Below, one piece after another: positions 2,563 to 40,492 of a DNA stretch of 64,000 nucleotides. Made by a program: the position numbers and the translations under genes. Where the stretch lies: contig CAVYTU010000014.1 in the NCBI GenBank assembly GCA_963771465.1, forward strand, positions 1,088,001 to 1,152,000. Reading direction: 5' to 3'. The notes beneath the pieces were generated by a model. The model ran no database searches. It had not been told where the DNA came from and saw only the letters and a program-made list of their open reading frames with translations. The DNA comes from an uncultured delta proteobacterium. Its GTDB lineage: Bacteria > Desulfobacterota > Binatia > UBA9968. The number at the start of each line of letters is the position of its first letter. The stretch's first letter is position 1.

Positions 2563-4581
2563 TCACAATTCGGCGCGCAATATCAACGAAGCGGGTGGAT
2601 CAATGATTTTAATAAAAGGAATCGGATCGTCGGCTAGTTTGACCGGTTCGATGGTGGCAGCAGGTTCACTCTTGAGGCCGGCAATCCAATGATATTTGAG
2701 AACAATGACCTTGCCTTTGAGCTCGCTGAGCTCGATGCGGTTGAGTGATGTTTTGACTTTACCTTCGCCTTCGATGAACCAACTGAGAGTTTGATCGACT
2801 TTCAGCAAATGCACCGGGCCGATGCGCCGGTCGAGGGTGAAGAGACCGGGTATGGCTTGGAACCGTTTGAGTGAGACGGGGTGAAACGCGACCACGGCGC
2901 CGATGTTGTAAAGGCGCAGATAACTTCGCAGCTCTTCGTCGGAGAAAGTAGCGATGTCGCGCTTGAACAGTTTGCCTGAGTGAAACTCGGTGAAATGGTG
3001 CCGGTCGTTGTAGAGATTGATCGGTCCACCGATGAGTTGGCGGCTGATGTGATGCGCGATGAACGACGAAAGATACATGCCGTCATAGACAAAGCCGGTT
3101 TCATCTCCCGACTCTTCGAACAAGACTCGCGCTTCTACTGAGGTTTCGCGTGCGATCCAGTCAGCGACCGCGGCGATTTCGGGAATCGCTCGGGTCCTGA
3201 GCTTGAGTTTGCCTGCCGCTTCCGTTTGGACAAGGTTTACCGCGAAGGCGCAGAGCGCTAGGCTCAGCAGCCACGGCACCCATCGCCAAAATCTTCCGTC
3301 ACGCCCGTTCACCCAGCGGCTGATGGCGTAAGCCGCGCCGATCGCGAGAAACAAATCGTAGGGAACCTTGAAGCGCAGCGGTTGCCAGGCTTTGACACTC
3401 GGTAGGAACGCGCCGAAGTAGGTTAAGATGAACAAAACAGAAATTGCCCAAGCGAGCATGATGCCGAGCGCGCGATGTTCGCTTTGAATGAGCGTGCGGA
3501 TTCCGGCCGCGCCGAGAATCAACAGGGCGATGCGAAAGCCCTTTTCGACAAATGACGGCCGGAAGGTCCAGTAACCTTTGGTGCCGACGTAGTCGATTAC
3601 AAAAGTAAATGGATCGGTGCTGGCGAAGAGCGGTAGCTGCTCGACGATCGATTGTGAAACATCGTCGTTACGGTGGGCGATTGCGGTGAAGAGCCACGGT
3701 GAGTTTACCAGCAGCGATGCCGCAGCCGCGCCGAAGAGTGCCAAGAGCCGATTGCGTTGGAGCGATTTGGGCTGGGCAACCAGCAAGGCGATCATCGGCG
3801 GGGCCAGGATCAATATCGACTGCACATGCAGCGGCAAGATGACCACCGCGAAGAAGAGCCAGCCGATATGAGCTGGTGAGATTGCTCTGTCTTCACTAGC
3901 GATCCGATAAAATAGTGACACGCCCCAGATGCTCAGGTAGGAAGCGACGGGGAAGCCGATCATGCCGTAGAAAAACATCTCGCGCGGCAATGAGTTCCAC
4001 CAGTAAATGATGCCCAATAAAGCGGCCGAGAGTGCGATTAGATTTTTCGAGTCGACAGCGTAGAAAAAATTCCTGGCGGCGAAAAACATCAGCCATGGCA
4101 CAGCGGCCATCGATAAAAACACGCTTAGCTTAAACCATTGGAGAGCGGTGAGCGTTAAGGCGGACAAGACGAGCGCAGTGAATTCAAAGAACTTGATGCT
4201 CAGATCTTGAATCGTGTTCGACGGGTAGCCGGCCATGAACAACGGATTGTAACCAGAGAGTATTCGATCCCGCGTCCAGAATGCTTCCAGCGATTTCAAG
4301 TGGTGAAAGTGCAGCCCCCAGTCCTGATCGATGAGCGGATGGGTATCGAACAAGCCGCCGATGGATTGAAAGAGCAGCAATAGGCCGAGCAGATGAAGAG
4401 CAAAGACGACGCCCGTGGCAGTGATCGCGCGGCGGGGATGGTTGAACCCAATACGCAGGATCGAATATCGGCCAAGGTTGTCGTTCGCTGCACGATCAGC
4501 AGCGTTGCGGAGATTTCGGCTGCGTCGGCGCGGCGGTCTGCGCACGGCGAACTGAATGGCAACTGAGTCGACGAGGGACAT
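2563..4581 (-). CDS. Large integral membrane protein, probable GT-C fold glycosyltransferase
   Basis: Many TM helices, acidic D-Q-D-W loop after TM1, GYNPLFMAGYP motif, C-terminal soluble domain. Start uncertain; ATG 4581 chosen to avoid overlap with the divergent gene. Confidence 0.6.
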   Translation of the reverse strand: MSLVDSVAIQFAVRRPPRRRSRNLRNAADRAANDNLGRYSILRIGFNHPRRAITATGVVFALHLLGLLLLFQSIGGLFDTHPLIDQDWGLHFHHLKSLEAFWTRDRILSGYNPLFMAGYPSNTIQDLSIKFFEFTALVLSALTLTALQWFKLSVFLSMAAVPWLMFFAARNFFYAVDSKNLIALSAALLGIIYWWNSLPREMFFYGMIGFPVASYLSIWGVSLFYRIASEDRAISPAHIGWLFFAVVILPLHVQSILILAPPMIALLVAQPKSLQRNRLLALFGAAAASLLVNSPWLFTAIAHRNDDVSQSIVEQLPLFASTDPFTFVIDYVGTKGYWTFRPSFVEKGFRIALLILGAAGIRTLIQSEHRALGIMLAWAISVLFILTYFGAFLPSVKAWQPLRFKVPYDLFLAIGAAYAISRWVNGRDGRFWRWVPWLLSLALCAFAVNLVQTEAAGKLKLRTRAIPEIAAVADWIARETSVEARVLFEESGDETGFVYDGMYLSSFIAHHISRQLIGGPINLYNDRHHFTEFHSGKLFKRDIATFSDEELRSYLRLYNIGAVVAFHPVSLKRFQAIPGLFTLDRRIGPVHLLKVDQTLSWFIEGEGKVKTSLNRIELSELKGKVIVLKYHWIAGLKSEPAATIEPVKLADDPIPFIKIIDPPASLILRAEL

Positions 4582-4689
4582 GAGAACTATTTTTTCGCCA
4601 AGCCGGTGAAAAGGGTCGGAAAGTGGAAACCCCGAGAAGCCTATAGTAAGAACGTAAGGGATAGATAACAGCAACGAGATTTCTTGCCA

Positions 4690-5445
4690 ATGAGCCAAAC
4701 AGATATTTATCTCTCGGTGATCGTGCCGGCATACAACGAAGCGGCGCGCGTCGGCAAAACCTTAGAGCGATTGCAGCAATATCTCACCCACGCGCGATTC
4801 AGCTACGAGATCTTAGTCGTCATTGACGGTTCCACGGACGCAACCGCGCAAGTCGTGCGGCAACGGGCCGAGGGATTTTCCGGGCTTGGATTGATCGAGC
4901 GCGGCGCCAATCGCGGCAAAGGATTTACCGTGAGAGAAGGGATGCTTGCCGCCGTCGGTCAGGTTCGGTTGTTCTGCGACGCCGATAACTCGACCGACAT
5001 CGGCCACTTCGACAAGATGAAGCCGCTGCTCGACCAAGGCTACGATGTCGTCATCGCGTCGCGCAACGACTCGGACGTGGCCGGCGCGGAGCAGGCGGTC
5101 GCGCAGGCCTGGTATAAGCGCGCCGTCGGCAGATTAGGCAATCGGATTGTGCAGCGGCTGGCGGTGCCCGGTATTTGGGATACCCAGTGCGGCTTTAAGG
5201 CATTTCGCGCCGTCGCCGCCGAGCGAATTTTTTCACAGACGACGATAGAGCGCTGGGGTTTTGACATCGAAGCGCTGGCTTTGGCGCAGGCGCTAAACTA
5301 TCGGATCGGTATTATTCCCGCCCATTGGATCAATGATGACCGAAGCCACGTGCGGTCGCTGGATTATTTAAAAGTGCTCACCGACACCTGGGCGGTGCGG
5401 CGAAATCTGCGCGCCGGCAAGTACCAGCTGTCAAATTTCACGTGA
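4690..5445 (+). CDS. Polyprenyl/dolichyl-phosphate glycosyltransferase (GT2, DPG-synthase-like)
   Basis: SVIVPAYNE, DGSTD, NRGKG, DAD, DTQCGFK and WGFDIE motifs. Confidence 0.9.
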   Translation: MSQTDIYLSVIVPAYNEAARVGKTLERLQQYLTHARFSYEILVVIDGSTDATAQVVRQRAEGFSGLGLIERGANRGKGFTVREGMLAAVGQVRLFCDADNSTDIGHFDKMKPLLDQGYDVVIASRNDSDVAGAEQAVAQAWYKRAVGRLGNRIVQRLAVPGIWDTQCGFKAFRAVAAERIFSQTTIERWGFDIEALALAQALNYRIGIIPAHWINDDRSHVRSLDYLKVLTDTWAVRRNLRAGKYQLSNFT

Positions 5446-6307: not shown

Positions 6308-6847
6308 ATGATCGGAAAACTATCGGCTGGGATTGCCGGTTTGTGCCTATTGGTTGGCTGTTCGATGGCCGCGCCGGGAACGCGGGCGAGCGCCGCACTG
6401 AAAGAAGATGAAGATAAGGATGGCAAGACCATTGGCACGGCAACGTTAAGGGAACAATCGGGTGGCGTGCTGGTGCTCGTGCGCGTGGAGCCCAAAGGAC
6501 TAACGCCGGGTTTACACGCCGTGCATATTCACGCGGTCGGCAAATGCGACGCGCCGGCGTTCACTAGCGCGGCGGGTCACTTCAATCCGTCGGGGAAAAA
6601 ACATGGATCTAAGAGTGCTGAAGGCGCTCACGCCGGCGATATGCCGAATATGCTGGTGACCAAAGACGGTTCAGGCCGCTTTGAAGTTTTGGCCGACGGT
6701 ATCACGCTCCGCGCCGGACCGCTGTCGGTGTTCGACACCGACGGTAGCGCGCTGGTCATTCATGTAGGGGTGGACGATTATTTAACCGACCCTACCGGCA
6801 ATGCCGGCGATCGCGCCGCCTGTGGTTTGATCGTCGCGAGCAATTAG
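6308..6847 (+). CDS. sodC: Cu/Zn superoxide dismutase, probable lipoprotein
   Basis: HAVHIH, GHFNP, KHG, HAGDMPN, ALVIH and GNAGDRAACG motifs; LLVGC lipobox; GGGAGA RBS before ATG 6308. Confidence 0.9.
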   Translation: MIGKLSAGIAGLCLLVGCSMAAPGTRASAALKEDEDKDGKTIGTATLREQSGGVLVLVRVEPKGLTPGLHAVHIHAVGKCDAPAFTSAAGHFNPSGKKHGSKSAEGAHAGDMPNMLVTKDGSGRFEVLADGITLRAGPLSVFDTDGSALVIHVGVDDYLTDPTGNAGDRAACGLIVASN

Positions 6848-7602
6848 ATTCTCGATTCAAGGTAGTGCAGCCGAGCTCGACCGTGAGCTAGGCTAGCTTC
6901 GGCCTGCCGAATCCGTTCGACGGTTCCAAGATCCTGCCAGAAACCGTCGAAGCAAAATCCATAGAGCGCTTCGCCGGCGAGCAGCATTTGCGGATAGGTC
7001 TTCTGGGTCGTGCTGAATTTTTCACCGGCGCCTTGGGCGGCCATGTAAGCGAAGATCTTCGGCTCGATAATCTGCACGCCGGTGAACATGAGTTTGCGCA
7101 GCGGTCCGGCTGGCTGGGCGGCAATCTTGCTATTGAGGAAGCGATGGATTCTGCCGTCGTCATCGATGTCCATGGAGCCGTATTGATCGGCCATTTCATC
7201 CGGCCGAAGCACCAACGTTACGGCGGCCTTCTTTCGCTCATGGAAGGCAATCAGCTCGGCGAGATTGAGATCGATGAGCGCATCGGTATTAATGACGATG
7301 AAGCCGCCGTCGTGGAGAAACGATTTGGCTTTCAGCAAGCCGCCGCCGGTGTCCAGCAACTCTACTTCTTTGGAATAACTGATTCTGACACCGAGCTGCG
7401 CGCCGTCGCCGAGATGGCTCTCGATCTGGTCACCGAATTGATGCAGGTTGATGACGATGTCGCGAATGTCGTAATGGCGCAGCAATAGGAGCGCATATTC
7501 GATCATCGGCCGGCCGGCCACCGGCACCAGCGCTTTTGGTTTGTCGTCGGTGATTGGCCTCAAGCGCGTCCCTTGGCCCGCGGCCAGAATCATCGCTTTC
7601 AC
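6844..7602 (-). CDS. murU: Nucleotidyltransferase, MurU-like (MurNAc-1-P uridylyltransferase)
   Basis: MKAMILAAGQGTRLRPIT..PK and LLDTGGG motifs; overlaps the upstream AmgK-like gene by 4 nt. Confidence 0.75.
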   Translation of the reverse strand: MKAMILAAGQGTRLRPITDDKPKALVPVAGRPMIEYALLLLRHYDIRDIVINLHQFGDQIESHLGDGAQLGVRISYSKEVELLDTGGGLLKAKSFLHDGGFIVINTDALIDLNLAELIAFHERKKAAVTLVLRPDEMADQYGSMDIDDDGRIHRFLNSKIAAQPAGPLRKLMFTGVQIIEPKIFAYMAAQGAGEKFSTTQKTYPQMLLAGEALYGFCFDGFWQDLGTVERIRQAEASLAHGRARLHYLESRI

Positions 7603-8675
7603 AGCATCGCCTCGAAGTGCTCGAGCAGTAAGGGTCGGATTGATTGGGTTTGCGCGGTCTCTGCCAAGTTACGCTGCAAACGCCGCACGGTGGGCGGCAC
7701 GAACTTCATATAGCCCGGCTTCCCTTTGACGATATCGAGATAGTAAAAACGGCCGACAACTTTTAAGTCCCGTTGAATCGCCGAGAGCCGATAGATGTCG
7801 CTAAACTGGTCAAAATCCGCATGCTGTTTTTCCAGCTCGCACTTACGCTCGAAGAAGTAACGCACGAGTCGGGCCTCGATATCAGGCTGAATCACGCTGT
7901 CGGTGATGCGATCGTTCAATAACGAAGCAAGGTCGTATTGCGCCGGCGCCAACAGCGCGTCTTGGAAATCGATGACGCGCACGGTGTTCTCGTGGATCAT
8001 GAGATTCCAGCTATGATAGTCGCGATGGTTCAAATAGACGGGTTGGCGCTCGAGAGTCGCCGCGATTTCGCTGAAAACTTTTCGCAGTGCGTCGGTGCTG
8101 ACCTTGGCGATTTTTCCGCCCGGACGTTTTTCCAATCCCCACTCGATGAAGTGCTCGAACTCCCACATGTAGAGTGAAGCGTCGAAGCGCTGTTGAAAGG
8201 CGATACATCGATCGTCGCGCGCCGCCGTGCCGCGGAATTGCAGGTTGAGTAACTCGTCGAGCGCTTTTCGATACCAGACGATCACTTCGCTTTCAGCTAA
8301 ACCCTGCACTCTGTCCCACAACGCGGTGTCACCCAAGTCTTCGAGAAAGAGCAAGCCATCACTTTCCCACTGGCCGAAGAGTTTGGGCACGTTGACGCCG
8401 ATGGCCTCCAGAAAGCGATGCACATTTAAGAACGGTAGTTCTTGCGGGCCGTCTTTGAAGATCGCCAGCTCTTCGCTGGAAAGCGGCAGGGCGCTGCCCG
8501 CCGGCAGTTCCATGACGATCATCGTGGGCGGCGCGCCGGCGCCGCTCAAACGGGCGCGGTAGTAACGCCGGCTCGAGGCGTCGCCGGCGAGCGGCGCCAG
8601 TGACGTGAGCGATGCGCCGGGGCCAAACGCAGCGAGAACTTTGTCGGCGATGCGCTGAGTGATCGGATCAGTCAA
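7599..8675 (-). CDS. amgK: Anomeric MurNAc/GlcNAc kinase (APH-like phosphotransferase)
   Basis: LAGDASSRRYYR, LEDLGD, HRDYHSWNLM, IDFQDA and YDLASLL motifs; paired with murU. Confidence 0.8.
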   Translation of the reverse strand: MTDPITQRIADKVLAAFGPGASLTSLAPLAGDASSRRYYRARLSGAGAPPTMIVMELPAGSALPLSSEELAIFKDGPQELPFLNVHRFLEAIGVNVPKLFGQWESDGLLFLEDLGDTALWDRVQGLAESEVIVWYRKALDELLNLQFRGTAARDDRCIAFQQRFDASLYMWEFEHFIEWGLEKRPGGKIAKVSTDALRKVFSEIAATLERQPVYLNHRDYHSWNLMIHENTVRVIDFQDALLAPAQYDLASLLNDRITDSVIQPDIEARLVRYFFERKCELEKQHADFDQFSDIYRLSAIQRDLKVVGRFYYLDIVKGKPGYMKFVPPTVRRLQRNLAETAQTQSIRPLLLEHFEAML

Positions 8676-8735: not shown

Positions 8736-8768
8736 GAAGTGCCGGCGACCGCCGGTGCGTTAGACTTC
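8736..8768 (-). promoter_or_regulatory. Candidate bacterial SECIS hairpin
   Basis: Immediately 3' of UGA on the minus strand: GAAGU-CUAACGCA-CCGGC-GGUC-GCCGG-C-ACUUC. It has a lower stem GAAGU/ACUUC, an upper stem CCGGC/GCCGG and a GGUC apical loop. Confidence 0.75.
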
Positions 8769-8984
8769 TCACGTGCCGCCGAAACCGACCGTGATCTTGC
8801 CGGCGTCGACGATGACCGGAATCTTGCGCCGGCCGTTGGTTAACTTGACCATGCGCTCGAGGCCGTCTTCGTCTTTTAGCACGTTGATATATTCGAATGG
8901 GATCTTGCGCCGGGAGAAGTCGGCGCGGGCCGCCGAAGTGTACTGGCAAAGATCCTGTCCGAATATGAGAACTTTTTCGTCCAT
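8760..8984 (-). CDS. Glutaredoxin-like selenoprotein (UXX-star type), ending GGT-U-E-V-stop
   Basis: Grx-like pattern (CQYT, IPVIV, VGFGG). TGA at 8771-8769 is followed by GAA GTC TAA and a SECIS-like hairpin. The ORF track truncates it at the TGA. Confidence 0.8.
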
Positions 8985-9121
8985 GAGTCGATTCGCCTCG
9001 CGCCGTTCAAGGTTTGCCGCAGCTAAAAAATAAGCAGCCGGGGGCTAAATTGCAAGTGAGTCTACCCCTATGTTACTTTCGTGAGAATTTATTCAACCGG
9101 TTTACCCGTGGAGAGGAATTT

Positions 9122-10039
9122 GTGACGATCCGCACTGCCATCGCTCAGATCAACCCAAAGCTTGGCGACCTCCAAGCGAACCTTGCGCTGTACGAAGCGA
9201 AAATTCGCCAGGGAATCGAACATCGCGCCGAGCTGCTGCTGTTTCCCGAGTTGAGCCTGACCGGTTACTTTCTGCGCGATACCGTACCCAACGTGGCGCT
9301 GACGCTCGATTCAGTCGAAATGACCGCGCTCAAAAGATTGAGCCGCGAACTGCCCTTCGTCGCCGGGCTGGTCGAGGAAAGCGCCGATCACCGCTTTTTT
9401 AATTCTGCGGTCTATTTCGAGGACGGCGAGATTCGCCACGTGCATCGGAAAGTTTATTTGCCGACCTATGGGATGTTCGACGAGCAGCGCTATTTCGCCA
9501 GAGGTGACCGGGTGCGTGCCTTCGATTCCAAGTTTGGCCGCTTGGTGCTGCTCATCTGCGAGGATCTCTGGCACCCATCGACGATCTATCTGGCGGCGCT
9601 CGATGGCGCGTTGGCGGTGATCTGTCCGTCGTCGAGTCCGCTCCGCGGTGTCGTCGATGACCAGGTCCAAGACGACAACGCGCGCTACTGGGAGATGATC
9701 AACCGGGCTTATGCCGAGACTTATAGTTTGTTCATGCTCTACGCCAACCGCTGTGGCTTTGAAGATGGCGTCGGCTTTTGGGGCGGGTCGGAGATCGTCG
9801 ATCCTTTTGGCCAGCGGCTGGCCAAAGCGAAATATTACGACGAGGATTTTATCGTCAGCGAAGTCGCCTTCCAAGCGGTGCGGCGCAAGCGGACGATGTC
9901 GCCATTATTGCGCGACGAAGATATGGATCTGACGATCAACGAGCTAATGCGCATTCGCGAGCGGCCGGCGGCGACCAAGGGGGTTCAAAAGTTCAAAAGT
10001 TCAAGGGCTCAAGGTTTCCGCAAACCGAAGAAGCGATAA
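9122..10039 (+). CDS. Nitrilase/carbon-nitrogen hydrolase; probable glutaminase subunit of NAD synthetase
   Basis: [27 protein letters not shown] and ICEDLW (E-K-C triad); GAGGA RBS before GTG 9122; adjacent to nadE. Confidence 0.85.
9983..10014 (+). repeat. Degenerate 8-mer tandem repeat within the nitrilase 3' end
   Basis: GTTCAAAA GTTCAAAA GTTCAAGG GCTCAAGG. Confidence 0.7.
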
Positions 10040-10089
10040 CGATCGCGCATCGAACGAATTGCCGCGAGCGACTCAGCTTGCACTCTCCC

Positions 10090-10911
10090 ATGATCCAAAT
10101 TCCCACCAACACTACTTTGTTGCGCGAGATTCTTACCGCGTTCATTCGTAACGAGGTGCACAAGACCGGCCTTAAGCGCGTGGTCATCGGTTTGTCCGGC
10201 GGCGTCGATTCGGCGCTGAGCGCAATGCTCGCCGCAGAGGCCCTCGGGCCGAAAAACGTCTTGGGTATTTTAATGCCGTACAAAAGCTCCAATCCAGACA
10301 GCCAGGAGCATGCTGAGCTGGTCGCGCAACAAAGCGGCATTGAAACTCTGCTGGTGGAAATCACGCCGCAGATTGACGCCTATTTTGCCAAGTTTGCGGA
10401 CGCGGATGCGCGCCGGCGCGGCAATAAGATGGCGCGCGAGCGAATGACGATTCTCTACGATCACTCGGCGCGCTGGAACGCGTTGGTGTTGGGTACAAGC
10501 AATAAGACCGAGCTGCTGCTGGGCTACGGTACGCTCTACGGCGACATGGCTTCAGCGATCAATCCAATGGGTGATCTCTATAAAACTCAGGTGTGGGCGC
10601 TGGCCGAAGCGGTCGGCGTGCCGCCCGCTATCGTGCAAAAAGACCCGTCCGCCGATCTTTGGGTCGGCCAGACCGATGAAGGCGAGTTGGGGTTTACCTA
10701 TCGTGAAGTCGACAAATTGCTCTTCTTAATGGTCGATCAGCGCTACACCCGGGCGGAGCTGATCGCCGCTGGCTTTCCCGAACGCTTTGTCGACGAAGTC
10801 GCGCTCGGCATTATGAATTCGCAATTCAAACGGCGTCTGCCGGTCATCGCCAAGGTGTCGCAGCGCACGATTGACCGTGATTTTCGCTATTCCAGAGACT
10901 GGGGCAAATGA
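10090..10911 (+). CDS. nadE: NAD+ synthetase (single-domain synthetase)
   Basis: [32 protein letters not shown] and [12 protein letters not shown] motifs; ATG at 10090. Confidence 0.93.
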
Positions 10912-13203: not shown

Positions 13204-15393
<2,190 letters not shown>

Positions 15394-29187: not shown

Positions 29188-31209
29188 ATGACCTTTTCAG
29201 CCATCGCGGTTGCACCCGCTCATTTCGCATCGGCGCATTTCGCCGCGCCCTACCCAGTTCACAATCGCTGCCGATTGCCATCGCGCCATACCGTGCGGTG
29301 GATTGCCGTGGCGCTGCTGATCGTTTTTTTCAGCGGTTATTGGGCGGTGCCAGCCCAAGGCGAAATTCAAATCGAACCGCGGGTCGGTTTCCACGGCGTG
29401 TTCCAGCTTGGCCGGCCGTTTCCACTCGAGATCGAGTTAAACAATAGCGGTCGGCCGGCCGAAGGCGTCTTAGAAGTGCAGGTTTGGAAGGGCGGCGCCA
29501 CCAAAGGCGGCGCGCCGTTCGCGGTCAACTACCGGCGCCAAGTATTTCTCGCGGCCCAGGCGCGCAAGACCATTCAACTCACCGTCGATCCCGATTTTAT
29601 CAGCCGGCCGCTGAGGCTTACTTTCTCCAGTCCCGCGGGCGCGGCCAAGCGCGAACTCGATCTGCGTCGTTATTTTTCACCGACCCCGCTGCTGCTGTTT
29701 CTGAGCGAGAGCAATTTATTACCGCCGATGGCGAGTGCGACGGGGCAGCATCGGCTGATCGCGCTGTCGCCCGGCGAGCTCGCTGCGGACCCGCGCGCAC
29801 TGCTCGGCGTGTCCCACGTTATTCTCTACGATCAGTCGCTACGCGATTTGTCGCGCGCTCAACTCGCCGCCCTCGATACCTGGCTCAGTTCCGGCGGCCG
29901 CATGGTGATCATCGGCAGTCTCAATTTTGCGCTCTATCAAGACGCGGCGCTCAGCCGTTTTTTGCCGGTGCGGGTTAGCGGCACCCGGCGGATCACTTTC
30001 AAACCGAGCGCGGTCAAAGACGAGCCGCCGGCATCGCTCGGCGGCGTGTGGGCGCTGCAGTCGACGCTGGTCAACGGCAAGGTGCTGGCCGAAAGCGACG
30101 GCGTGCCGGTGTTGGTCGAAGCCAGCCGCGGCCGGGGACGAATTATTTATTTCGCTTTGGATATCGGCCGTCCGCCGTTAGCGCAGTGGAGCGGGCTGCC
30201 GAGATATTTGCAGACGCTGCTGGCGCCGGCTAGCGCTGACGATCAGCCGCTGCGCAGCGAGTGGAACGACGCGGTGTTTGCCCAGCTGATCGCGAGTCCG
30301 ACGTTTATCTCGACCTACGTGCCTTCCGGCTCGATGTTTGTCGCGATGATTCTCTATTTGGCCGGTCTCGGCGGTATTCTCTGGCTCTGGCAGCGCAAGA
30401 CATTCTCCGGGCGGGCAACCCTTGGCGCTTTGTTTGGGCTGGTGAGCGTCGGCACTGTTGCCGGCTATTTTCTCTTCAATCGCGGCGGCAATATTCCCGA
30501 CGGTGTGCTGATGACTTCTACCTTGCTTGAGAGCAGCGGCGACGGTTACGTCGAGGCACAGGCGAATCTCGCGCTATTCTCCACCCAGCCGCGGCCCTAC
30601 GATCTCGAAATGAATCGGGGATGGATGGAATTGACGCCGGTCTCCAACCGGGCTAGGGATCAGCAGGCGGCGGCGGTTGTACAACAAGACAGCAACGGTG
30701 TGAGCCGCTACCATCTGCCGCTGCGCGAATGGGACTATCGGCTGTTTCGCATGCGGCTCATCGACCGTTTTCAATTGCGCGCTGAGTTCGAAGCGCAAGG
30801 CGATCAACTGATCATGAAAATCGATAACCAGAGCGGCAAAGATTTGACCCACTGTTGGCTGTTGGTGCCGGGCCGACAATTCGATCTCGGCCGGATCGCC
30901 CATGGCGCCACTTGGCGCAAAACCTTTTCGTTGACGCCCCTCAAGAGCGCCGCCGAAGCGAGCACGGCGCGCAGCGAAGGGGTGAGCTTCCGCGAAGTGC
31001 GGTTTCCGGATAAGACCCGGGATATTTTGTTTCACTCGTCGTTTTTTCCGCGCGACGGCGACGCCCGCTGGGCGAGCGGGGCGGCGGTGTTTTTCGGTTG
31101 GGTCAACGATTTTGAACCGAAGGTGCGCCTGGACGATGCGCGCATCCAGCGCCAGGACTACGCGCTCTACCGCGCGATCATTCCGTTAGCCCAAGGGGAG
31201 GACGAATGA
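29188..31209 (+). CDS. Hypothetical exported/membrane protein with a GATase-like central domain (MoxR operon)
   Basis: Signal-like segment, QLAALDTWLSSGGRMVIIG motif, two TM helices, C-terminal beta domain; start uncertain. Confidence 0.6.
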   Translation: MTFSAIAVAPAHFASAHFAAPYPVHNRCRLPSRHTVRWIAVALLIVFFSGYWAVPAQGEIQIEPRVGFHGVFQLGRPFPLEIELNNSGRPAEGVLEVQVWKGGATKGGAPFAVNYRRQVFLAAQARKTIQLTVDPDFISRPLRLTFSSPAGAAKRELDLRRYFSPTPLLLFLSESNLLPPMASATGQHRLIALSPGELAADPRALLGVSHVILYDQSLRDLSRAQLAALDTWLSSGGRMVIIGSLNFALYQDAALSRFLPVRVSGTRRITFKPSAVKDEPPASLGGVWALQSTLVNGKVLAESDGVPVLVEASRGRGRIIYFALDIGRPPLAQWSGLPRYLQTLLAPASADDQPLRSEWNDAVFAQLIASPTFISTYVPSGSMFVAMILYLAGLGGILWLWQRKTFSGRATLGALFGLVSVGTVAGYFLFNRGGNIPDGVLMTSTLLESSGDGYVEAQANLALFSTQPRPYDLEMNRGWMELTPVSNRARDQQAAAVVQQDSNGVSRYHLPLREWDYRLFRMRLIDRFQLRAEFEAQGDQLIMKIDNQSGKDLTHCWLLVPGRQFDLGRIAHGATWRKTFSLTPLKSAAEASTARSEGVSFREVRFPDKTRDILFHSSFFPRDGDARWASGAAVFFGWVNDFEPKVRLDDARIQRQDYALYRAIIPLAQGEDE

Positions 31210-31949
31210 AGGACAATCCGGTCTGGCGCGAAAGCATCGAGGTTTTCTTTGTCGAGGGGCACGGCTATCAGGTTTATTTTTATCTGTTGATCATTCTCAC
31301 GCCGGTAGAATTTTTCTCGTTATATATTCCTTCCCTCGACGCCCAAATGTGGAGCGGTTCGGCGAGTCTGTTCAGAGTCACGGCGGTGAGCGCGCTGCTG
31401 TTGATCGTCTATTTTTCCTTGCGAGTGGCCAATCAGGAGTTTGCGCCGTGGCGGTTTCGGCCGATCAAACATTGGCTCGGCCAACAAGGTCAGCCCGCCG
31501 CCGCGGTGCGCCGCGGGCAACTATTTTTTCTTTTGGCCCATATCGGCCTCTCATTGCTGGTCTCGGCGCCGCTCTTGGTCTGGGCCGGCGCCGTGGCGCG
31601 CACACCGCTCACGAGCATCGCCGTGACCTTTCTGTTGCTCTCCTTTTACGCGCTGAGCTACGGTGTCTGGGGGCTCGCCTCGCTGGCGCTTTGGGAGCGT
31701 CGCGTGGAGAACCGGCAAGTTTTTATCCGTTGCTTTTTTACCTGCTTGGTGATTTTGTCGGCGTTGTTTTATCTGCCACTCAACCCGATCGCGTTTCTAC
31801 TGGCGTATCTCAGCCGGCAAGAGTTGGCACCGCTAACGATTTTCGGTTGGCAATGGCCGGCGCCCTATCTCCATTTCACTTTTCATCTCATGCTCGGCGC
31901 CTCAGGCTACGCCTTGCAACGTTGGGCGTTGCAAAGGGAGGCGTCATGA
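31206..31949 (+). CDS. Hypothetical multi-pass membrane protein
   Basis: About 6 TM helices; ATGA overlaps on both sides. Confidence 0.65.
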   Translation: MKDNPVWRESIEVFFVEGHGYQVYFYLLIILTPVEFFSLYIPSLDAQMWSGSASLFRVTAVSALLLIVYFSLRVANQEFAPWRFRPIKHWLGQQGQPAAAVRRGQLFFLLAHIGLSLLVSAPLLVWAGAVARTPLTSIAVTFLLLSFYALSYGVWGLASLALWERRVENRQVFIRCFFTCLVILSALFYLPLNPIAFLLAYLSRQELAPLTIFGWQWPAPYLHFTFHLMLGASGYALQRWALQREAS

Positions 31950-33376
31950 ACCCGCTGGCCGTCGCGCTCCAGGAGAAATTTGCCGCGTTACTTAGTTGGG
32001 AGCGGCGCAAGCGCAGCGAGCAGATACTGCTCACCCTTGCCGGAGTGGCGCTAGCCGTGACGATCGCGCTGATGCCGCTGAACGGCTATTTGCCGATGGA
32101 CGCGTTGCGCTGGCTGATGCCGGTGATCGTAGCGCTGGGGATCTCGCCGGTTATTTTCTACCGTCAACGCTGGCGCCCAAGAGATGTCACCCGCGCGCTG
32201 GCGCAGATCGACAAAGAACTTCAGCTTGACGAACGTGTGAGCACCGCTTGGGAATTGTCCGCGGCAGTCGATCAGAGCGCCACCGCTCAGTTAGTGATTA
32301 AACAAACGGAAGCCGGTTTGCGCGCAGTGCAACCGCGCGATTTGTTTCCACGTCAATGGCGTTGGCAAAGCTACGCCGCGTTGCCGTTGATGATTCTCTG
32401 GTTCGGTTTGCTGTGGTTTGATGCCGATCGCCCCGACTTGGCGCAGCAAAGTGTTAACGCGCCACGGACGCTGGCGCAGAAGCTGGGCGAATTTGCCCGT
32501 GACTTGCAAGAAAAAGCCAAGAGCGAAGGTTTGCCGGAAAGCTTTAAAGCGGGACAAGAGCTGGAAAAGGTTGCGCGCAAGAATATCGAGGCTAAAACCG
32601 GCGACGAGCAGCTCAAAAAAGAAGTTTCCGGCATGGCCAAAAAATTTGAATCCGCGGCAAAGACCGGCGCCGAGAAGAATTCCTTCACGGCCGGCGAATC
32701 CGAGCAGAGCTTACGGGATCTCAAGGCCGAGTTGGATGCAGCGCACGATCTGTTGGAGCTACCCGACGGCGTCAAAGGGAGCCAAGAATTGCCGCAACAG
32801 TGGATGGATCGCTTGGCTTCATTGCCACAGCTCAAGAAGCAATTGGACAAAGAGCAGCAAGCCGGGCCGGGCATGGGTCAAAATCAACTCAAGGCATTTC
32901 TCGACCGCATGAATCAGCAGGCGACCGGCGCCCTCGACCGGCGGGCGCTCATCGACGCGCAAAAATTTCTCGACCAGATGATGCAACAAGGACAAGGCCA
33001 GAAATCTGACAGCCAGACGCAGATGGCCGGCCGGGGCGAACCAGACGGCAGCGACGACGGCGCGCGCGAAAAAAATCACAGCAACTCGCCCGGCAAAGAG
33101 CCGGGGAAAAAAGACGACGGAGCCAATTCGTTGCCGGAGTTTCGCGGCGGCGCACAGACGCAAATCAAAGGATTGCTTGGCGCGGGCGAGAGCAGCGGCG
33201 TGGCTTTCAAGGGCAAGCCGCCGACCGGAAAAAGCGCGCTCAGTCAGCAAGCCGTGGTGGCCAACTATCGGCGCCAGGCTGAGCAGGAGCTGAATTCGGA
33301 ACGTGTTCCCGAAGCGTTGAAAGAGACGATACGGAATTATTTCTTGTCGCTGGAGAATAGTGAGCCAAGCAAGTGA
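31946..33376 (+). CDS. Membrane-anchored coiled-coil protein (MoxR operon)
   Basis: ATG 31946 after GGGAGG; LDERVSTAWE motif, Q/G-rich coiled coil, VPEALKETIRNYF tail. Confidence 0.7.
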   Translation: MNPLAVALQEKFAALLSWERRKRSEQILLTLAGVALAVTIALMPLNGYLPMDALRWLMPVIVALGISPVIFYRQRWRPRDVTRALAQIDKELQLDERVSTAWELSAAVDQSATAQLVIKQTEAGLRAVQPRDLFPRQWRWQSYAALPLMILWFGLLWFDADRPDLAQQSVNAPRTLAQKLGEFARDLQEKAKSEGLPESFKAGQELEKVARKNIEAKTGDEQLKKEVSGMAKKFESAAKTGAEKNSFTAGESEQSLRDLKAELDAAHDLLELPDGVKGSQELPQQWMDRLASLPQLKKQLDKEQQAGPGMGQNQLKAFLDRMNQQATGALDRRALIDAQKFLDQMMQQGQGQKSDSQTQMAGRGEPDGSDDGAREKNHSNSPGKEPGKKDDGANSLPEFRGGAQTQIKGLLGAGESSGVAFKGKPPTGKSALSQQAVVANYRRQAEQELNSERVPEALKETIRNYFLSLENSEPSK

Positions 33377-33397
33377 GTTGCCACAGGGAGTCCCATC

Positions 33398-34401
<1,004 letters not shown>

Positions 34402-34405
<4 letters not shown>

Positions 34406-35476
34406 CGATGGCTTTGGAGTCAAGGGTAGCGAGTCTCGAGTTGAGGTTCCAGCGCTTTGCGGCGCTATTGGCGAAGGTTGCTCGTCGCGCGCGTGGGAAG
34501 GGTTTTCGCTTCCCGCGCAGTGACAGGGACAGGCACGAAGAAAATCCACGCCTGGCTGTCTCCCAAGGCAAAACTCCAGACAGCCATCCGGAAACCTTCT
34601 TCGACACCGACTTTCTGCGCAAGCTCGAACGCTTGCACCTGATCGCCAAGCGGCTAAGTTGGGCCGGCGCCAAGGGCGAGCATGCGGTGTCGCGCAAGGG
34701 ATTTAGCTTAGAATTCTCCGATTACCGGCGCTATCAGCCGGGCGACGACCTGCGTTACGTCGATTGGAATATTTATCGCCGCCTCGATCGGCTGCTATTA
34801 AAGGTGTTCACCGCCGAAGAGGAGTTGAATATTTATCTGCTGGTCGATACCAGCCGATCGATGGCAGTGGGGGCCGAGGGCGCGCCGGTCAAAACTCGAC
34901 TACGCCAAGAAAGTCGCCGCGGCGTTGGGCTATATCGGGCTTAAAAACCTCGACCGCGTCGGCGGCGCGCCGTTTTCAACGGCGCTGCATAAGCCGCTGA
35001 CTCTCGGCCGCGGGCGAAAACAGATTCTCAGCATGTTCAGTTTTCTCAACCACCTGTCGTGCAGCGGCGAGACCAATTTGCGCGCGTCGATTCATGCCTT
35101 CACCAATCTGTTTCCCCATCCGGGATTTGTCGTGATCGTCAGCGACCTGTTCGATCCTGAAGGTTGGCGCCGAGCGTTGGAAGAGTTGACGGCGAAACGA
35201 TACCAGCCGCTAGTGATTCACATCGTCGATGAACAAGAGCTGCAACCCAAGGCCTGGGGTGATGTCGCCCTCATCGACGTCGAAGGCGGGCGCGAGCGGA
35301 AATTTTTTCTTGACGACGATTTAGTCCGGCGCTTCCAAGCGGAGCTGGCGAGTTATTTCAAGGATATCGAAACGGTGTGCGCCAGCCGGCGCATCGATTA
35401 CCTGCGCACGACGACGCAGGTGCCCTTCGACGAGTTCGTCTTGCAGACGCTGCGCCAGGTGAGCAGCGTGGCGTGA
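34402..35476 (+). pseudogene. DUF58 family protein, split by a +1 frameshift near 34865-34895
   Basis: The first frame has EFSDYRRYQPGDDLRYVDWN...VDTSRSM. The +1 frame continues SKLDYAKKVAAALGYIGL...VIVSDL. This is either a real lesion or a sequencing error; the start is uncertain. Confidence 0.75.
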
Positions 35477-35494
35477 ATCAATCCCGGCTCGATT

Positions 35495-38400
35495 ATGCTC
35501 TGGTCTTTGCCCTCCGCGCTTTTCCTGCTCGCCGCGGCGTTGCCGCTGATCTTGTTTCTCCATAGCCTCAAGCCGCGCGGCTTGAAGATCGCCACGACCA
35601 CGTTGTTTCTTTGGGACCGGGTCTTGCGCGAGCGGCCGCTGCATGCCCGCCTCGGTTGGCTCTTGCGCAAAAATCTTTTACTGATTCTGCAATTAATTGC
35701 GGCACTCGCGTTGATCGCGGCCCTGGCCGATCCATCGTTACTGCATTTCGGTGCACCGTCCGGCGATCTCGTCGTCGTGCTCGACCTGAGCGCGAGCATG
35801 AAGGCCAAGGGCAAAAGCGGTACGCGCTTCGACGCCGCGCGCCGAGAATTTCTCGCTTTAGTCGATGGCCTGGGCGCGCAACAAAAAATGCTCGTCATCG
35901 CCGCCAGCACGCAGCCGCGCCTGGTTGCGCCGTTTACTTCCGACCAACGCAAGCTTCGTGAGCTCGGCGCAAGTATCGAAGCGACCGATGCGCAGGGGCG
36001 GGTTAAAGACGCGATTCTTTTCGCCCACGGGTTTTTAAAACGCGCCAGCGCCGACCGCGTCATCGTTATCAGCGACGGCGCCTTCAGCGGCGCCGAAGAA
36101 TACGCCAAAGCGGCGGCGCATTTGAGCTTCATCAAGATTGACGGCGTCAGGGACGGGACCGGCAATATCGGCATCATCGGTTTCGAAGTGCGCCGCCAGC
36201 CCGATCGGCCGTCGTCAGCCGAGATCATGGTGCATGTTCGCAACTTCACTAAGCGGGCGATCAAGGTGCCGCTGGTCTTGAGCTTAGGTGAGAAAACGTT
36301 GCTGCGCGACGAGATTGAAATCGGTGCCGACGACCGGCGTGTATTAATCTATCCTTTCGACGGCAGCTTGACCGGCGCGCTGACCGCGCGACTGGAAATC
36401 GACGACGACTTCGCCACCGACAACCGCGCCTATCTCGCCGTCAACGACGCGCCGACCGTGCGCCTGCTCTACATCGGCCCGGGAAACCCTTATCTGAGTA
36501 ATCTCCTGCGGCTGTTCGCCAACGTTGAGGTGGTTGCAGCGGCGCGCTGGGAGGCCGAGCTCGTGCGCGCACAAAAGCCGTTTGACGTGGTCATCTTCGA
36601 TCGCGTCCCGGTGCCGGCATTGACCCAGGGCAATTTTATTTTGATCGACACCGTCGCGCCCAATCTGCCGATCCAACTCCAGGGGAAGATTCAAGCGCCG
36701 CGCGTGACCGCGCCGCTGGCGAAGCATGCGCTGACCGAAGGTTTGGGTCTCGGCGATTTGCGCGTGCACGAGGCGTTGCGCGTCGCCCTCGCTGGCGATG
36801 CGACGGCCCTAGCGCGGTCGGATGAAGGACCGCTGCTGGTCGCCATGGAACGCGGCAAGCTCCGTCTGCTGTTCATCGGCTTCGATCTTGCGGCCTCGGA
36901 CCTGCCGCTGCGCATCGCGTTTCCCGTGCTGATGCACAACGCGCTGGAATGGTTTCAGCCCCAGCGCGTGGAATTTCCCGCTCAGAGCGCCCAGGCGGGC
37001 ACACCCTTGGCGTTACGCTTCCCAGCCGGTGACGGCGCGCTGGAGATTACTTTGCCGTCGGGCAAAAGCGAAAGTTTCAGTAATACGGTAAATCCGTTTC
37101 TGTTCGCCGATACTTTCCATAGTGGCTTTTACGGCTTTAAAAGTGCCGGGCGCGCAGGTCGATTCGCAGTCAATCTCTTCGATGAAAACGAATCGAATAT
37201 CGCGCCGCGCCTAAGCGCGACGACAAAGGCCGCAGGGAGCAGCGAGAGTAGTGGTATCGTCGAGAACGCCTTCTCACTTTGGCCGTTTCTGCTCGGCGCC
37301 GTACTGCTGTTGCTAGGGTTGGAGTTATTTCTCGCGTTGCGCCAGAGCCTGGCGCTTTACCCAGTTCTGGTTCGCGGTACAGCGTTGGCCGCGCTCGCGT
37401 TGGCATTGTTCAACCCGCGGATTTTCAACTCAACCACGGCGCTCGATGTTATCTTCGGCGTCGATCTGTCGCGCAGCGTCGGCCAAGAAGGGCGCGAGAA
37501 AGCGCGCGATGTGCTCGAAGCCGCTGAGCGATTTCACAGTCCGATGACGCGTACCGGTCTGCTCGCTTTCGGCCAGGCGCCGGAGTGGGAGTTTTTGCCG
37601 CGTGAAAAGATCGGCGCCGCCGATTTCGGGGCGCGCTTGGCGCGCGATGAAACTGACATTCAAGCGGCGCTGCAAGCGGCGTTGGCGCAGATCGGCGAAG
37701 GGCGCCAGGGCAGAATTCTGTTGCTTTCCGACGGCAACGAGAATCGCGGCGAGACCGCACGGGTCGCGCCGCTGCTGCGCAGCCAAGGAGTGTCGGTGTG
37801 GACCTTGCCGGTGAGTTTATCGCGCGGCCGCAATGAGATTTATTTGAGCGACTTCACGTTGCCGCGCCAAGTCGACAGCGCCGAAGGGTTCGAGATACGC
37901 GCCGCCATCGAAAGCTGGCGCGATGCGCCGGCGCGGCTGCGCTTGCTGCGCGACGGTGTCGTGCGGATCGAGCAGGAGCTGCGCTTGAAAGCCGGCGCCA
38001 ATGCGCTCAGTTTTCGCGACAACCTGACCGAGCGCGGCAATCATAACTACGAGCTCTTGGTCGAGTCGGCCGACGACACGCTGGCGGAAAACAATTTCTT
38101 GCAGGGTGTCGTCGAAGTGAAGGGGCCGCCACGAGTGCTGTTGCTTTCGGCCCACGCGGAAAGCCAACGGGTGATCTCCGGCGTATTGCAGACCCAAGGC
38201 TACGCAGTGGTCGCGTCTACGCCCGAGCGCCATTCGTTGTCGATGGCAGAGCTTTCCGCCTTCGATCTCTTGGTGCTCGACAACGTGCCGGCGTTTCAAT
38301 TGTCCCACGCCAAGATGGAGAATATTGAAAAATACACGCGTGACTTGGGCGGCGGCTTGCTGGTCATCGGCGGCTCGCAAAGCTACGGCGCCGGCGGCTA

Positions 38401-39835
38401 TTTTCGCACGCCGCTGGAGCGCATTTTGCCCGTCGACATGCGCCCGCCGGCGCGCCTCGACATGCCCCATGTGGCGCTGCTTTTCGTCCTCGACAAGTCG
38501 GGCAGCATGGGCGCCGGCGGGGAAGGTAGCACCAAACTCGATCTTGCCAAGGCTGCCGCCATCGCCGCCGCCGACATCATGAACCCGACGGATCAAGTCG
38601 GTATTCTTGCGTTCGACGCCAACTGGGATTGGGCTTTGCCGTTTCGCCAGGTCGGCAAAGGCGAATGGATTTCCGAGAAGCTGGCTAATTTGCAATCCGA
38701 CGGCGGCACCGATCTCTACAAGGCGATGGTCGAAGCGCAGCGCGGCATCGCTGGGAAGCAAGCCGCGATCAAGCACGTGATCGTGCTCTCCGACGGACTG
38801 ACGGACAAGGCGGACTTTCAATCTTTGGTCAGTAAGATGGCGCGCGACGGCATCACCGTTTCTACCGTATCGGTGGGCAGTGACGCCGATGTTAAACTGA
38901 TGGCCGAGATCGCCAAAGAAGGCCGGGGACGCGGCTATGTAGCGCTCGATCCGCAGACGATTCCGCAGATTTTTACCACTGAGACTTTGCTGATATCGCG
39001 CGATCTGCTGATCGAAAAAACCGTGACGCCGACGATTGTGGCGCCGAGCGGGCCGCTTAAAGGCATTGCGCAAGCTAATTTGCCGCCACTGCGCGGCTAT
39101 GTTTTAACCTATCCCAAGCCGCGCTCGGAACTGCTCATGCGCGTGGATAAAGATCCACTGTTGGTCTCTTGGCGCTACGGACTCGGTCGGGTGATGGCAT
39201 TCACATCGGACTTGAGCGGCCGTTGGGGCAAAGATTGGGTCAGCTGGCGGAGCTTTCCTCAATGGGCGAGCCAGATCAGCCGCGACACGCTGAGAAAGGT
39301 TCTCGACTCCAAGGTGCGTGCGGAATTTAGCGCCGACGGCGAGTCGGTAAAGATAGTCACCGATCTGGCGGCGCGCGACGGCAAGTTTCTGAATCATCTG
39401 AAGCTGAAGGCCAATGTCACCGCGCCGGATCGCACGACGCACGAGCCGACGCTGCAACAAAGCGCGCCGGGACGTTACGAAGGACAGTTTACGCCGGCGG
39501 CCCGCGGCATTCATTTTGTCACGCTTTATGCCGAGGGCAACGCCAATGAGCCGCCCGTGGCGGTGGCGACCATTCCCTATATCGCGCCTTATCCCAAAGA
39601 GTACCGCGAGTTAAAACCCAACCTATCGCTACTGAGCCGGCTCGCCGAAGAAACCGGCGGGGAGATGCTCGATCCGGAAAAATTCACCGACGGCTTGAAA
39701 CGTCTATACACACCGACCGTTGGAAAAAGCACCCAAGGAAAAGACACCTGGTGGCCGCTGGCGGGCGCGTCGCTGTTTTTATTCCTCGCCGATCTGGTGC
39801 TGCGCAGTTGGCCGCGCAAAGCTATTTTGACCTGA
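35495..39835 (+). CDS. Large BatA/VWA/GATase-like multidomain membrane protein
   Basis: BatA-like N-terminus (LPLILFLHSLKPR), three MIDAS motifs (DLSAS, DLSRS, DKSGS), GGGLLVIGGSQSYGAGGY and a C-terminal TM. Confidence 0.85.
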   Translation: MLWSLPSALFLLAAALPLILFLHSLKPRGLKIATTTLFLWDRVLRERPLHARLGWLLRKNLLLILQLIAALALIAALADPSLLHFGAPSGDLVVVLDLSASMKAKGKSGTRFDAARREFLALVDGLGAQQKMLVIAASTQPRLVAPFTSDQRKLRELGASIEATDAQGRVKDAILFAHGFLKRASADRVIVISDGAFSGAEEYAKAAAHLSFIKIDGVRDGTGNIGIIGFEVRRQPDRPSSAEIMVHVRNFTKRAIKVPLVLSLGEKTLLRDEIEIGADDRRVLIYPFDGSLTGALTARLEIDDDFATDNRAYLAVNDAPTVRLLYIGPGNPYLSNLLRLFANVEVVAAARWEAELVRAQKPFDVVIFDRVPVPALTQGNFILIDTVAPNLPIQLQGKIQAPRVTAPLAKHALTEGLGLGDLRVHEALRVALAGDATALARSDEGPLLVAMERGKLRLLFIGFDLAASDLPLRIAFPVLMHNALEWFQPQRVEFPAQSAQAGTPLALRFPAGDGALEITLPSGKSESFSNTVNPFLFADTFHSGFYGFKSAGRAGRFAVNLFDENESNIAPRLSATTKAAGSSESSGIVENAFSLWPFLLGAVLLLLGLELFLALRQSLALYPVLVRGTALAALALALFNPRIFNSTTALDVIFGVDLSRSVGQEGREKARDVLEAAERFHSPMTRTGLLAFGQAPEWEFLPREKIGAADFGARLARDETDIQAALQAALAQIGEGRQGRILLLSDGNENRGETARVAPLLRSQGVSVWTLPVSLSRGRNEIYLSDFTLPRQVDSAEGFEIRAAIESWRDAPARLRLLRDGVVRIEQELRLKAGANALSFRDNLTERGNHNYELLVESADDTLAENNFLQGVVEVKGPPRVLLLSAHAESQRVISGVLQTQGYAVVASTPERHSLSMAELSAFDLLVLDNVPAFQLSHAKMENIEKYTRDLGGGLLVIGGSQSYGAGGYFRTPLERILPVDMRPPARLDMPHVALLFVLDKSGSMGAGGEGSTKLDLAKAAAIAAADIMNPTDQVGILAFDANWDWALPFRQVGKGEWISEKLANLQSDGGTDLYKAMVEAQRGIAGKQAAIKHVIVLSDGLTDKADFQSLVSKMARDGITVSTVSVGSDADVKLMAEIAKEGRGRGYVALDPQTIPQIFTTETLLISRDLLIEKTVTPTIVAPSGPLKGIAQANLPPLRGYVLTYPKPRSELLMRVDKDPLLVSWRYGLGRVMAFTSDLSGRWGKDWVSWRSFPQWASQISRDTLRKVLDSKVRAEFSADGESVKIVTDLAARDGKFLNHLKLKANVTAPDRTTHEPTLQQSAPGRYEGQFTPAARGIHFVTLYAEGNANEPPVAVATIPYIAPYPKEYRELKPNLSLLSRLAEETGGEMLDPEKFTDGLKRLYTPTVGKSTQGKDTWWPLAGASLFLFLADLVLRSWPRKAILT

Positions 39836-39917: not shown

Positions 39918-40151
39918 ATGGCCCGAAAAGTTAAACTCACGCTCAGTTTAGACGAGGACGTCGTAGAGACCCTGGACTCTGTCAGCAAGCAAAGTAAGCA
40001 GCCTCGTAGCCGCGTGGTCCAAGATGCGATCCAGTTGTGGCAGCGCCGGCGGCTTCAGCAAGAACTGGCCGAAGGTTACCGCTCCATGAGCAAAGAAGAT
40101 CAGGAAACAGCGGAACAACGATTGGCTGCGTTTCGGGAGATTCTCGAATGA
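39918..40151 (+). CDS. Ribbon-helix-helix antitoxin (CopG/EndoAI-like)
   Basis: KLTLSLDEDVV...RSRVVQDAI and LAEGYRSM motifs; ATGA overlap with the toxin. Confidence 0.8.
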   Translation: MARKVKLTLSLDEDVVETLDSVSKQSKQPRSRVVQDAIQLWQRRRLQQELAEGYRSMSKEDQETAEQRLAAFREILE

Positions 40152-40492
40152 CCTCCCTGAGTCTGCGCCGCGGTGAGGTCTGGTTGGTGAATTTCAATCC
40201 CGGGCGAGGAAGCGAACAAAGAGGAATCCGACCGGCACTTGTCATTCAGAATGACACGGGAAATATCTACGCCTCCACGACGATCGTCGCTGCAATCACG
40301 ACTACGATTAAAGAATTCCCCATCACGGTTGTATTAGCGGTGGGTGACGGAGGGCTTCGGCAGCGATCGATGGTGAATACCGGACAGATACTGACCATCG
40401 ATAAAGCGCGTCTACAAAAACGGTTAGGCCGATTGAGCGATTCCAATATGCGTAGAGTAGAAACGGCGATTCGCGTGAGCCTCGATATCTGA
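40148..40492 (+). CDS. mazF: PemK/MazF family endoribonuclease toxin
   Basis: RRGEVWLVNFNPGRGSEQRGIRPALVIQND and QILTIDKARL motifs. Confidence 0.92.
   Translation: MTSLSLRRGEVWLVNFNPGRGSEQRGIRPALVIQNDTGNIYASTTIVAAITTTIKEFPITVVLAVGDGGLRQRSMVNTGQILTIDKARLQKRLGRLSDSNMRRVETAIRVSLDI

Follow-up and report, generated by a model that had tools for sequence, protein, structure and literature searches.

On the minus strand of the window, by which we mean the whole 64,000-nucleotide stretch of DNA that was analysed, a small gene almost certainly recodes an in-frame UGA as selenocysteine (Sec) and belongs to UXX-star selenoprotein family 1, as judged by sequence comparison. Taking all the evidence together, we think it probable that its product is a 74-aa Sec-containing mini-glutaredoxin with a Cys13-Sec72 pair. 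The gene is an ordinary further member of a catalogued family, whose terminal motif and double-Sec members are already known, and the finding will not surprise specialists, because the family is already curated. The features discussed below are as follows, with positions in the window.

8760..8984, minus strand: coding sequence of a UXX-star selenoprotein family 1 protein, 74 aa plus TAA (NF041114 match, open reading frame, predicted model)
8946..8948, minus strand: Cys13 of CQYT, at the N-terminal active-site position of glutaredoxins, without the second Cys of CxxC
8817..8819, minus strand: Pro56 (IP-VIV), at the cis-proline position of the thioredoxin fold, the cis geometry being presumed from the family
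8769..8771, minus strand: in-frame TGA, probably read as Sec72 (TGA-x-[VI]-stop in homologous loci; Cys here in the homolog P0124)
8760..8768, minus strand: the last two codons, Glu-Val (GAA 8768-8766, GTC 8765-8763), and the true stop TAA (8762-8760)
8742..8755, minus strand: putative bSECIS upper stem-loop CCGGC-GGUC-GCCGG, its loop 18 nt past the UGA, entirely 3' of the true stop (folding and conservation)
8736..8768, minus strand: the two-stem fold as a whole, with the lower stem GAAGU/ACUUC, as given by RNAfold, the lower stem not conserved
6844..8675, minus strand: amgK-like (7599-8675) and murU-like (6844-7602) genes, downstream and co-oriented, both below NCBIfam cut-offs

The UGA, its probable recoding and its hairpin

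The open reading frame starts with ATG at 8984 on the minus strand, and its 3' end reads ...GGC GGC ACG TGA GAA GTC TAA, with TGA at 8771-8769 and TAA at 8762-8760, exactly as the initial annotation had described it. Standard gene callers end the frame at 8769 and give 71 aa. Translated with TGA as Sec it yields 74 aa with the C-terminus GGTUEV, where U72 is the Sec, and C13 is indeed the sole Cys of the protein, at the glutaredoxin active-site position (CQYT).

Homologous loci were collected by a genome scan whose pattern covered the N-terminal motif including the active-site Cys, so that the C-terminal Sec site was left unselected. The scan confirmed 164 relatives, of which the best 80 were used and, after removal of one cut at a contig end, gave 79 complete loci; the nearest of them in GTDB are for the most part MAGs of Candidatus Binatia and of related delta-proteobacteria. 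TGA-x-[V/I]-stop is present in 78 of these 79 loci, which come from several phyla, and this supports the earlier proposal of a UGA recoded three codons before the end. When the window is added to the 78 loci, codon +2 is Val in 77 cases, with all four Val codons in use, and Ile in 2, and the true stop is TGA in 34, TAG in 32 and TAA in 13; since the Val codons vary synonymously and the choice of stop is free, the stretch after the TGA bears the signature of coding sequence. As a control we took 688 TGA stops of open reading frames of at least 200 aa from the same DNA, a set that may contain shadow frames and a few family stops, and found x-x-stop next in 23 and x-GTN-stop in 4. In the one exception among the loci (L077), TCA (Ser) takes the place of the TGA and GV-stop comes next. 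The family gene of this locus, near 10001-10219, is worth a remark of its own: its TCA is one base away from TGA and marks the true C-terminus independently, and it could also be a sequencing error.

RNAfold pairs GAAGU (8768-8764) with ACUUC (8740-8736) and CCGGC (8755-8751) with GCCGG (8746-8742) around the loop GGUC (8750-8747), with a two-stem energy of -9.8 to -11.3 kcal/mol. Both stems proposed in the initial annotation are thus predicted, but only the upper one is kept in the family. A lower stem of at least 5 bp occurs at 41 of 78 sites compared with 36.3 +/- 3.7 in shuffled sequences, which reached 41 in 74 of 500 shuffles, and the RNAalifold consensus of 13 close loci retains the upper stem only; the lower stem was consequently rejected as a conserved feature. 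For the upper stem we applied the bSECIS limits given in the Fig 2 legend of PMC13188914, namely a loop of 3-9 nt with a G among its first two nucleotides, an upper stem of 4-16 bp, a distance of 16-37 nt from the UGA and an MFE of at most -7.5 kcal/mol. The window hairpin falls within all of them (loop GGUC, 5 bp, 18 nt, -8.3 kcal/mol for the stem and -11.3 for the whole). It is not stabler than its dinucleotide shuffles when taken alone (z from -0.04 to -1.15 over four spans), and sequence comparison indicates that it exceeds chance only across the homologs. Of the 80 family sites, which comprise the window and 79 loci related to each other (from the best 80 of 164 relatives), 75 have a G-loop hairpin 16-25 nt past the TGA, against 61 of the 688 other TGA stops of the same DNA. 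The upper stems are highly diverse, with 56 distinct ones and, for every one of the six positions that were counted, 4-6 types of standard pair; G(G/U)N stands at the centre of nearly all loops. An arm-shuffle control (0.96 against 0.48 paired) carries no weight, being circular, because the stems had been chosen for pairing. The likeness to the loop of the E. coli fdhF SECIS also holds, as the fetched sequence does have GGUC. The Rfam scan of the window gave nothing relevant and left the hairpin unmatched. A Rho-independent terminator was rejected, since no terminator-like site is called at 8742-8755 and at least 5 T within the 8 nt after the hairpin are found for only 3 of 79 family hairpins.

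The counter-picture, in which homologs would end at GGT with neither downstream codons nor a hairpin, is therefore not what these loci present, given x-[V/I]-stop in 78 of 79 and the hairpin at 75 of 80. A plain stop, with a 71-aa protein and a hairpin that is a terminator or a chance fold, or a lineage that has lost Sec use, would agree with the ends of database homologs, 117 of 120 of which finish at the Sec site, with the lack of Sec machinery seen nearby and with a hairpin that is unexceptional on its own. However, those ends are the result of gene calling under code 11, with a plain stop one would expect other stop codons at the site too and no x-Val-stop after it in 78 of 79 loci when TGA-x-GTN-stop occurs at 4 of 688 control stops, and neither a called terminator nor, save in the 3 of 79, a T-tract accompanies the hairpin, so that we regard this reading as very improbable.

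The upper stem (8755-8742) lies wholly past the TAA, as had been noted earlier, and with only two codons after the UGA a SelB-binding stem would sit in the 3' UTR, free of coding constraint. Such a position has a precedent in bacteria, because in SaoC, according to Haft and Gwadz (bioRxiv 10.1101/2022.07.06.499078), the protein ends with UGA-UAG and a 7-bp hairpin with a GGU loop follows the stop. SaoC and KCU-star proteins share with our protein the near-terminal Sec and the SECIS past the stop; they are unrelated proteins and carry vicinal Cys-Sec motifs. It is strongly suggested by these data that SelB-GTP-Sec-tRNA would bind the G-loop hairpin 18 nt past the UGA, that Sec would be inserted and that Glu-Val-TAA would terminate the chain, and that in the absence of selenium a 71-aa product without the tail would be made.

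Genes of the Sec machinery usually lie elsewhere in the genome and need not be linked to selenoprotein genes. A tblastn search with E. coli SelA, SelB, SelD and FdhF (E 1e-5), which covered the window and the best 80 loci with 10 kb on either side, gave no selA, selB, selD or fdhF match, and tRNA scans of the same DNA gave no tRNA-Sec. The window was also scanned for further Sec sites, and among 17 sites of a TGA plus hairpin only that at 8771 was recognised in a real gene frame; the one at 42390 was rejected as lying in a shadow frame. A scan of the best 80 loci for neighbouring selenoproteins gave 17 distinct motif matches, none of them convincing by eye.

Family identity and the homologs

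With NCBIfam NF041114, 'UXX-star selenoprotein family 1', the protein reaches 104.1 bits (cut-off 72) over the whole profile (1-70 of 70). The 71-aa form scores 95.6 bits and ends at profile position 67 of 70, so the read-through completes the profile. The Uxx-star subfamily NF041212 was passed as well (89.5 against 66); family 2, NF041211 (60 against 100), family 3, NF047338 (54.3 against 97), and the HUGP/GUXX-star fusion NF045501 (55.2 against 325), which together with NF041212 share the fold and the terminal motif with our protein, stayed below their cut-offs. The Sec-x-x-stop ending contained in the family name is present as TGA-GAA-GTC-TAA, and the NCBI names of the close homologs P0077 and P0091, as well as of the top ESM Atlas cluster, are those of UXX-star family 1, which bears out the identification made in the initial annotation. 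PF00462 is matched (35.6 bits against 22.9), but the protein fails as a dithiol glutaredoxin or NrdH, having CQYT instead of CxxC and scores under every glutaredoxin/NrdH cut-off of NCBIfam (among them TIGR02181, 28.9 against 90; TIGR02194, 26.3 against 85.75; TIGR02196, 37.6 against 88.55).

In a 2026 review (PMC13188914, Table 1) NF041114 is listed as a predicted selenoprotein, 'Distant Grx-like protein 1', with UxxT and 2 Sec, and the same name is listed in a 2022 review (PMC9312934). We found no experimental work on the family in the literature searched, a search that did not take in Haft and Tolstoy 2025, and no mention of it by name in the passages found in the GOS paper cited by PMC13188914. 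Our protein shares with the family the whole-profile match, the U-x-x-stop end and C/UxxT at the glutaredoxin site. It differs from the representative of that table, which has UxxT and a second Sec, in having Cys13 and one Sec, and its motif is CQYT where CPYT is usual; beyond these, no difference was found.

The active-site Cys is invariant in alignment A2 (103 sequences), an invariance that is partly selected, because the locus search pattern contained that Cys, and Pro56, which aligns with the VP of solved glutaredoxins, is invariant in alignments A1 and A2. P0072 and P0079 have no Cys13, and P0154 has Thr at the Sec site; with these and the Ser locus L077, neither Cys13 nor Sec72 appears from the sequences to be absolutely kept. 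The alternation of Cys with TGA, which had been suggested as a check, is borne out by protein sequences: Cys stands at the tail site in 10 of the 150 distant matches listed (12 by regular expression, minus two GGTWC rows; 42 of the 150 were unparsed by the tail-site pattern). Three such homologs, P0124, P0138 and P0165, pass the family-1 cut-off, and P0124 aligns to our protein gap-free at 50% identity, with TCEV aligned to TCGV.

Fifteen homologs (P0094, P0108, P0111, P0128, P0131, P0141-P0143, P0149, P0168, P0174, P0180, P0182, P0183 and P0190) have W at position 13 as well as at the tail site, several with another W after xV. They look like double-TGA, that is double-Sec, genes in which TGA was rendered as Trp by the gene caller, and so understood they would fit the '2 Sec, UxxT' entry in PMC13188914. 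Many homologs of 50-56 aa start just past position 13 (e.g. P0151, P0181, P0191) and may be double-Sec forms cut at the first TGA. A genome-wide reassignment of UGA (Trp in code 4, Gly in code 25), by which residue 72 would not be Sec, could draw on the W at the Sec site in some database homologs, but W also takes the place of the catalytic Cys and of the true stop in them, which points to an artefact of gene calling. In the window itself TGA ends 33 of 76 open reading frames of at least 150 aa, shadow frames included, and the amgK-like gene ends in a TGA that overlaps the murU-like start; UGA being an ordinary stop elsewhere in the window argues against codes 4 and 25, and we give reassignment a negligible chance.

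The 15 longer homologs are mostly N-terminal over-calls or frameshifts by eye, and there was no reductase fusion among them. In three (P0275, P0277 and P0278, the P0277 cluster having 105 members) a PF20385-domain protein carries a C-terminal family-1 domain that ends with GGT. P0223 is a fusion in which an ArsR/SmtB metalloregulator precedes a Uxx-star domain, each part scoring above its NCBIfam cut-off, which hints at redox or metal sensing. The plasmid search for homologs returned no match.

The predicted fold and the proposed Cys13-Sec72 pair

The AF2 model, calculated from a 103-sequence alignment with Cys substituted for Sec, has a mean pLDDT of 94.5 (93 for the last four residues) in the best of five models, which span 94.5 to 85.8; the 71-aa form, folded as a control from its single sequence, gives 45.9, too low to be informative. 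Residues 2-70 match the glutaredoxin-like 3zij (BC3987; Z 10.7, rmsd 1.9 A, 68 aligned) and 7c10 (cGrx1; Z 10.3, rmsd 2.2 A, 67 aligned), and the structural alignments stop near residue 70, our chain ending where glutaredoxins start their last helix. With NrdH/YruB-type proteins and canonical glutaredoxins (3zij, 7c10, the NrdH 1h75, E. coli Grx3) the protein has in common the fold over 2-70 and the positions of the active-site Cys and the Pro; it differs from them in lacking the second Cys of CxxC and in having a short GGT-U-EV tail in place of the C-terminal helix.

According to DSSP only two short extra strand or bridge segments are present in the model, at 54-55, just before Pro56, and at 72-73; most simply, these two would be paired. 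In the complex of glutaredoxin with glutathione the cis-Pro loop contacts the glutathione. The same loop in DsbA complexes forms hydrogen bonds with the peptide backbone and presents the substrate cysteine to the active site, as described in PMC8405906. Because of the two segments and this substrate role of the cis-Pro loop, we infer that the tail occupies the substrate groove and brings Sec72 next to Cys13, for which it would be the resolving residue. With its Gly-Gly linker the U-E-V tail could bend back to the part of the groove next to Pro56 in which a substrate or glutathione usually offers a cysteine to the active-site thiol; Sec72 and Cys13 could then form a selenenylsulfide that stands in for glutathione as well as for the second Cys of CxxC, and the protein would be a thiol/selenol-disulfide oxidoreductase or a redox relay, re-reduced by some thiol or reductase. 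A Cys13-Sec72 redox pair is thus plausible, and we lean towards it, as it fits the predicted secondary structure and the finding that Sec and Cys replace each other at either site; a possible bias of AF2 towards Cys-Cys contacts weakens the support that the model lends.

Animal thioredoxin reductase and TGR have a Gly-Cys-Sec-Gly tail, and TGR couples this tail to a glutaredoxin domain. The likeness to thioredoxin reductases drawn in the initial annotation holds for a Sec on a Gly-linked C-terminal tail; it is loose in other respects, our protein having neither the vicinal Cys-Sec nor the flavin/NADPH domain. From this likeness one could also suppose that the tail acts in trans, Sec72 being a free-swinging nucleophile for another protein or subunit and Cys13 working as in a monothiol glutaredoxin with a small thiol. 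The Gly-Gly linker would permit such movement, the five AF2 models differ in confidence, and Ser and Thr variants occur at the tail site, but the best model orders the tail at high confidence. The last helix of canonical glutaredoxins, moreover, carries glutathione-binding residues, and this helix is absent here, with structural alignments ending near residue 70. We hold a tail acting in trans to be rather improbable.

Returning to the Cys13-Sec72 redox pair, we may go one step further and tentatively suggest, at somewhat less than even chances, that UXX-star proteins are self-resolving mini-glutaredoxins whose Sec tail acts as a tethered glutathione mimic in the cis-Pro groove, with a long-range S-Se or Se-Se bond to residue 13. 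If true, this redox centre in a thioredoxin fold would depend on neither CxxC nor glutathione, and the UGA-terminated 71-aa form, with its groove open, could be a functionally distinct product set by selenium supply. Docking of the tail in this way was not found in the literature searched; the main family paper, Haft and Tolstoy 2025, lies outside that search and may propose it.

Gene neighbourhood and implications

Downstream of the selenoprotein gene the amgK-like gene recurs in 12 and the murU-like gene in 12 of the best 80 loci, all within the 13 closest, and upstream rsmI, nadE and a nitrilase-like gene are likewise kept only in the 13 closest. A conserved operon at the family level was rejected, as this amgK/murU/rsmI/nadE context is limited to those loci and other clades differ; the amgK/murU context is, as far as gene order tells, a clade-level one and gives no hint of a substrate.

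The neighbourhood also bears on the main rival to the redox pair, by which Cys13 and Sec72 would be the two ligands that bind a soft metal or metalloid such as Hg, As or Cu, with a trafficking or sensing role. The same Cys13-Sec72 geometry would suit both roles, PMC13188914 names metal binding as a possible role of the UXX-star Sec, P0223 joins an ArsR/SmtB regulator to a Uxx-star domain, and a ZIP transporter and a Cu/Zn-SOD are encoded 2-3 kb from our gene. Yet zip homologs are found in 9 and sodC in 1 of the best 80 loci, every one of which belongs to the closest clade, a scan of the 25 commonest-neighbour clusters gave no metal-resistance gene except an ArsR-like HTH in 11 loci, and the Cys and Pro positions of glutaredoxins are kept. 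We consider the metal site unlikely, though less so than a tail acting in trans.

A few other regions of the window may be recorded here. At 9014-10911 (plus strand), divergent from the selenoprotein gene, an NAD synthetase is apparently split into a nitrilase-like glutaminase gene and nadE, a pair seen in 4 of the 13 closest loci. The NAD-dependent DNA ligase LigA at 13204-15381 (minus strand) has codon and residue usage unlike that of its neighbours, by eye. A run of six open reading frames (673, 675, 335, 180, 183 and 1446 aa) occupies 29188-39835 (plus strand) and has no NCBIfam match save a weak VWA-type one in the last. The 711-aa membrane-like protein at 2563-4698 (minus strand), next to a GT2 glycosyltransferase, has no Pfam or NCBIfam match and has a 59% homolog in the locus L001, and at 40037-40492 (plus strand) there is a MazF-like open reading frame, weak and below the cut-off.

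For annotation, a correction of three residues restores a likely catalytic residue that is missed by standard gene callers, which cut 117 of 120 homologs at this point, and it flags the Binatia-like source organism as a probable selenium user. The genes of the family supply dozens of natural bacterial SECIS stems without coding constraint, which are useful for defining the requirements of SelB. A protein of 74 aa that occurs naturally in Cys/Sec, Sec/Sec and Cys/Cys versions is, finally, a convenient test case for the question of why Sec is used.
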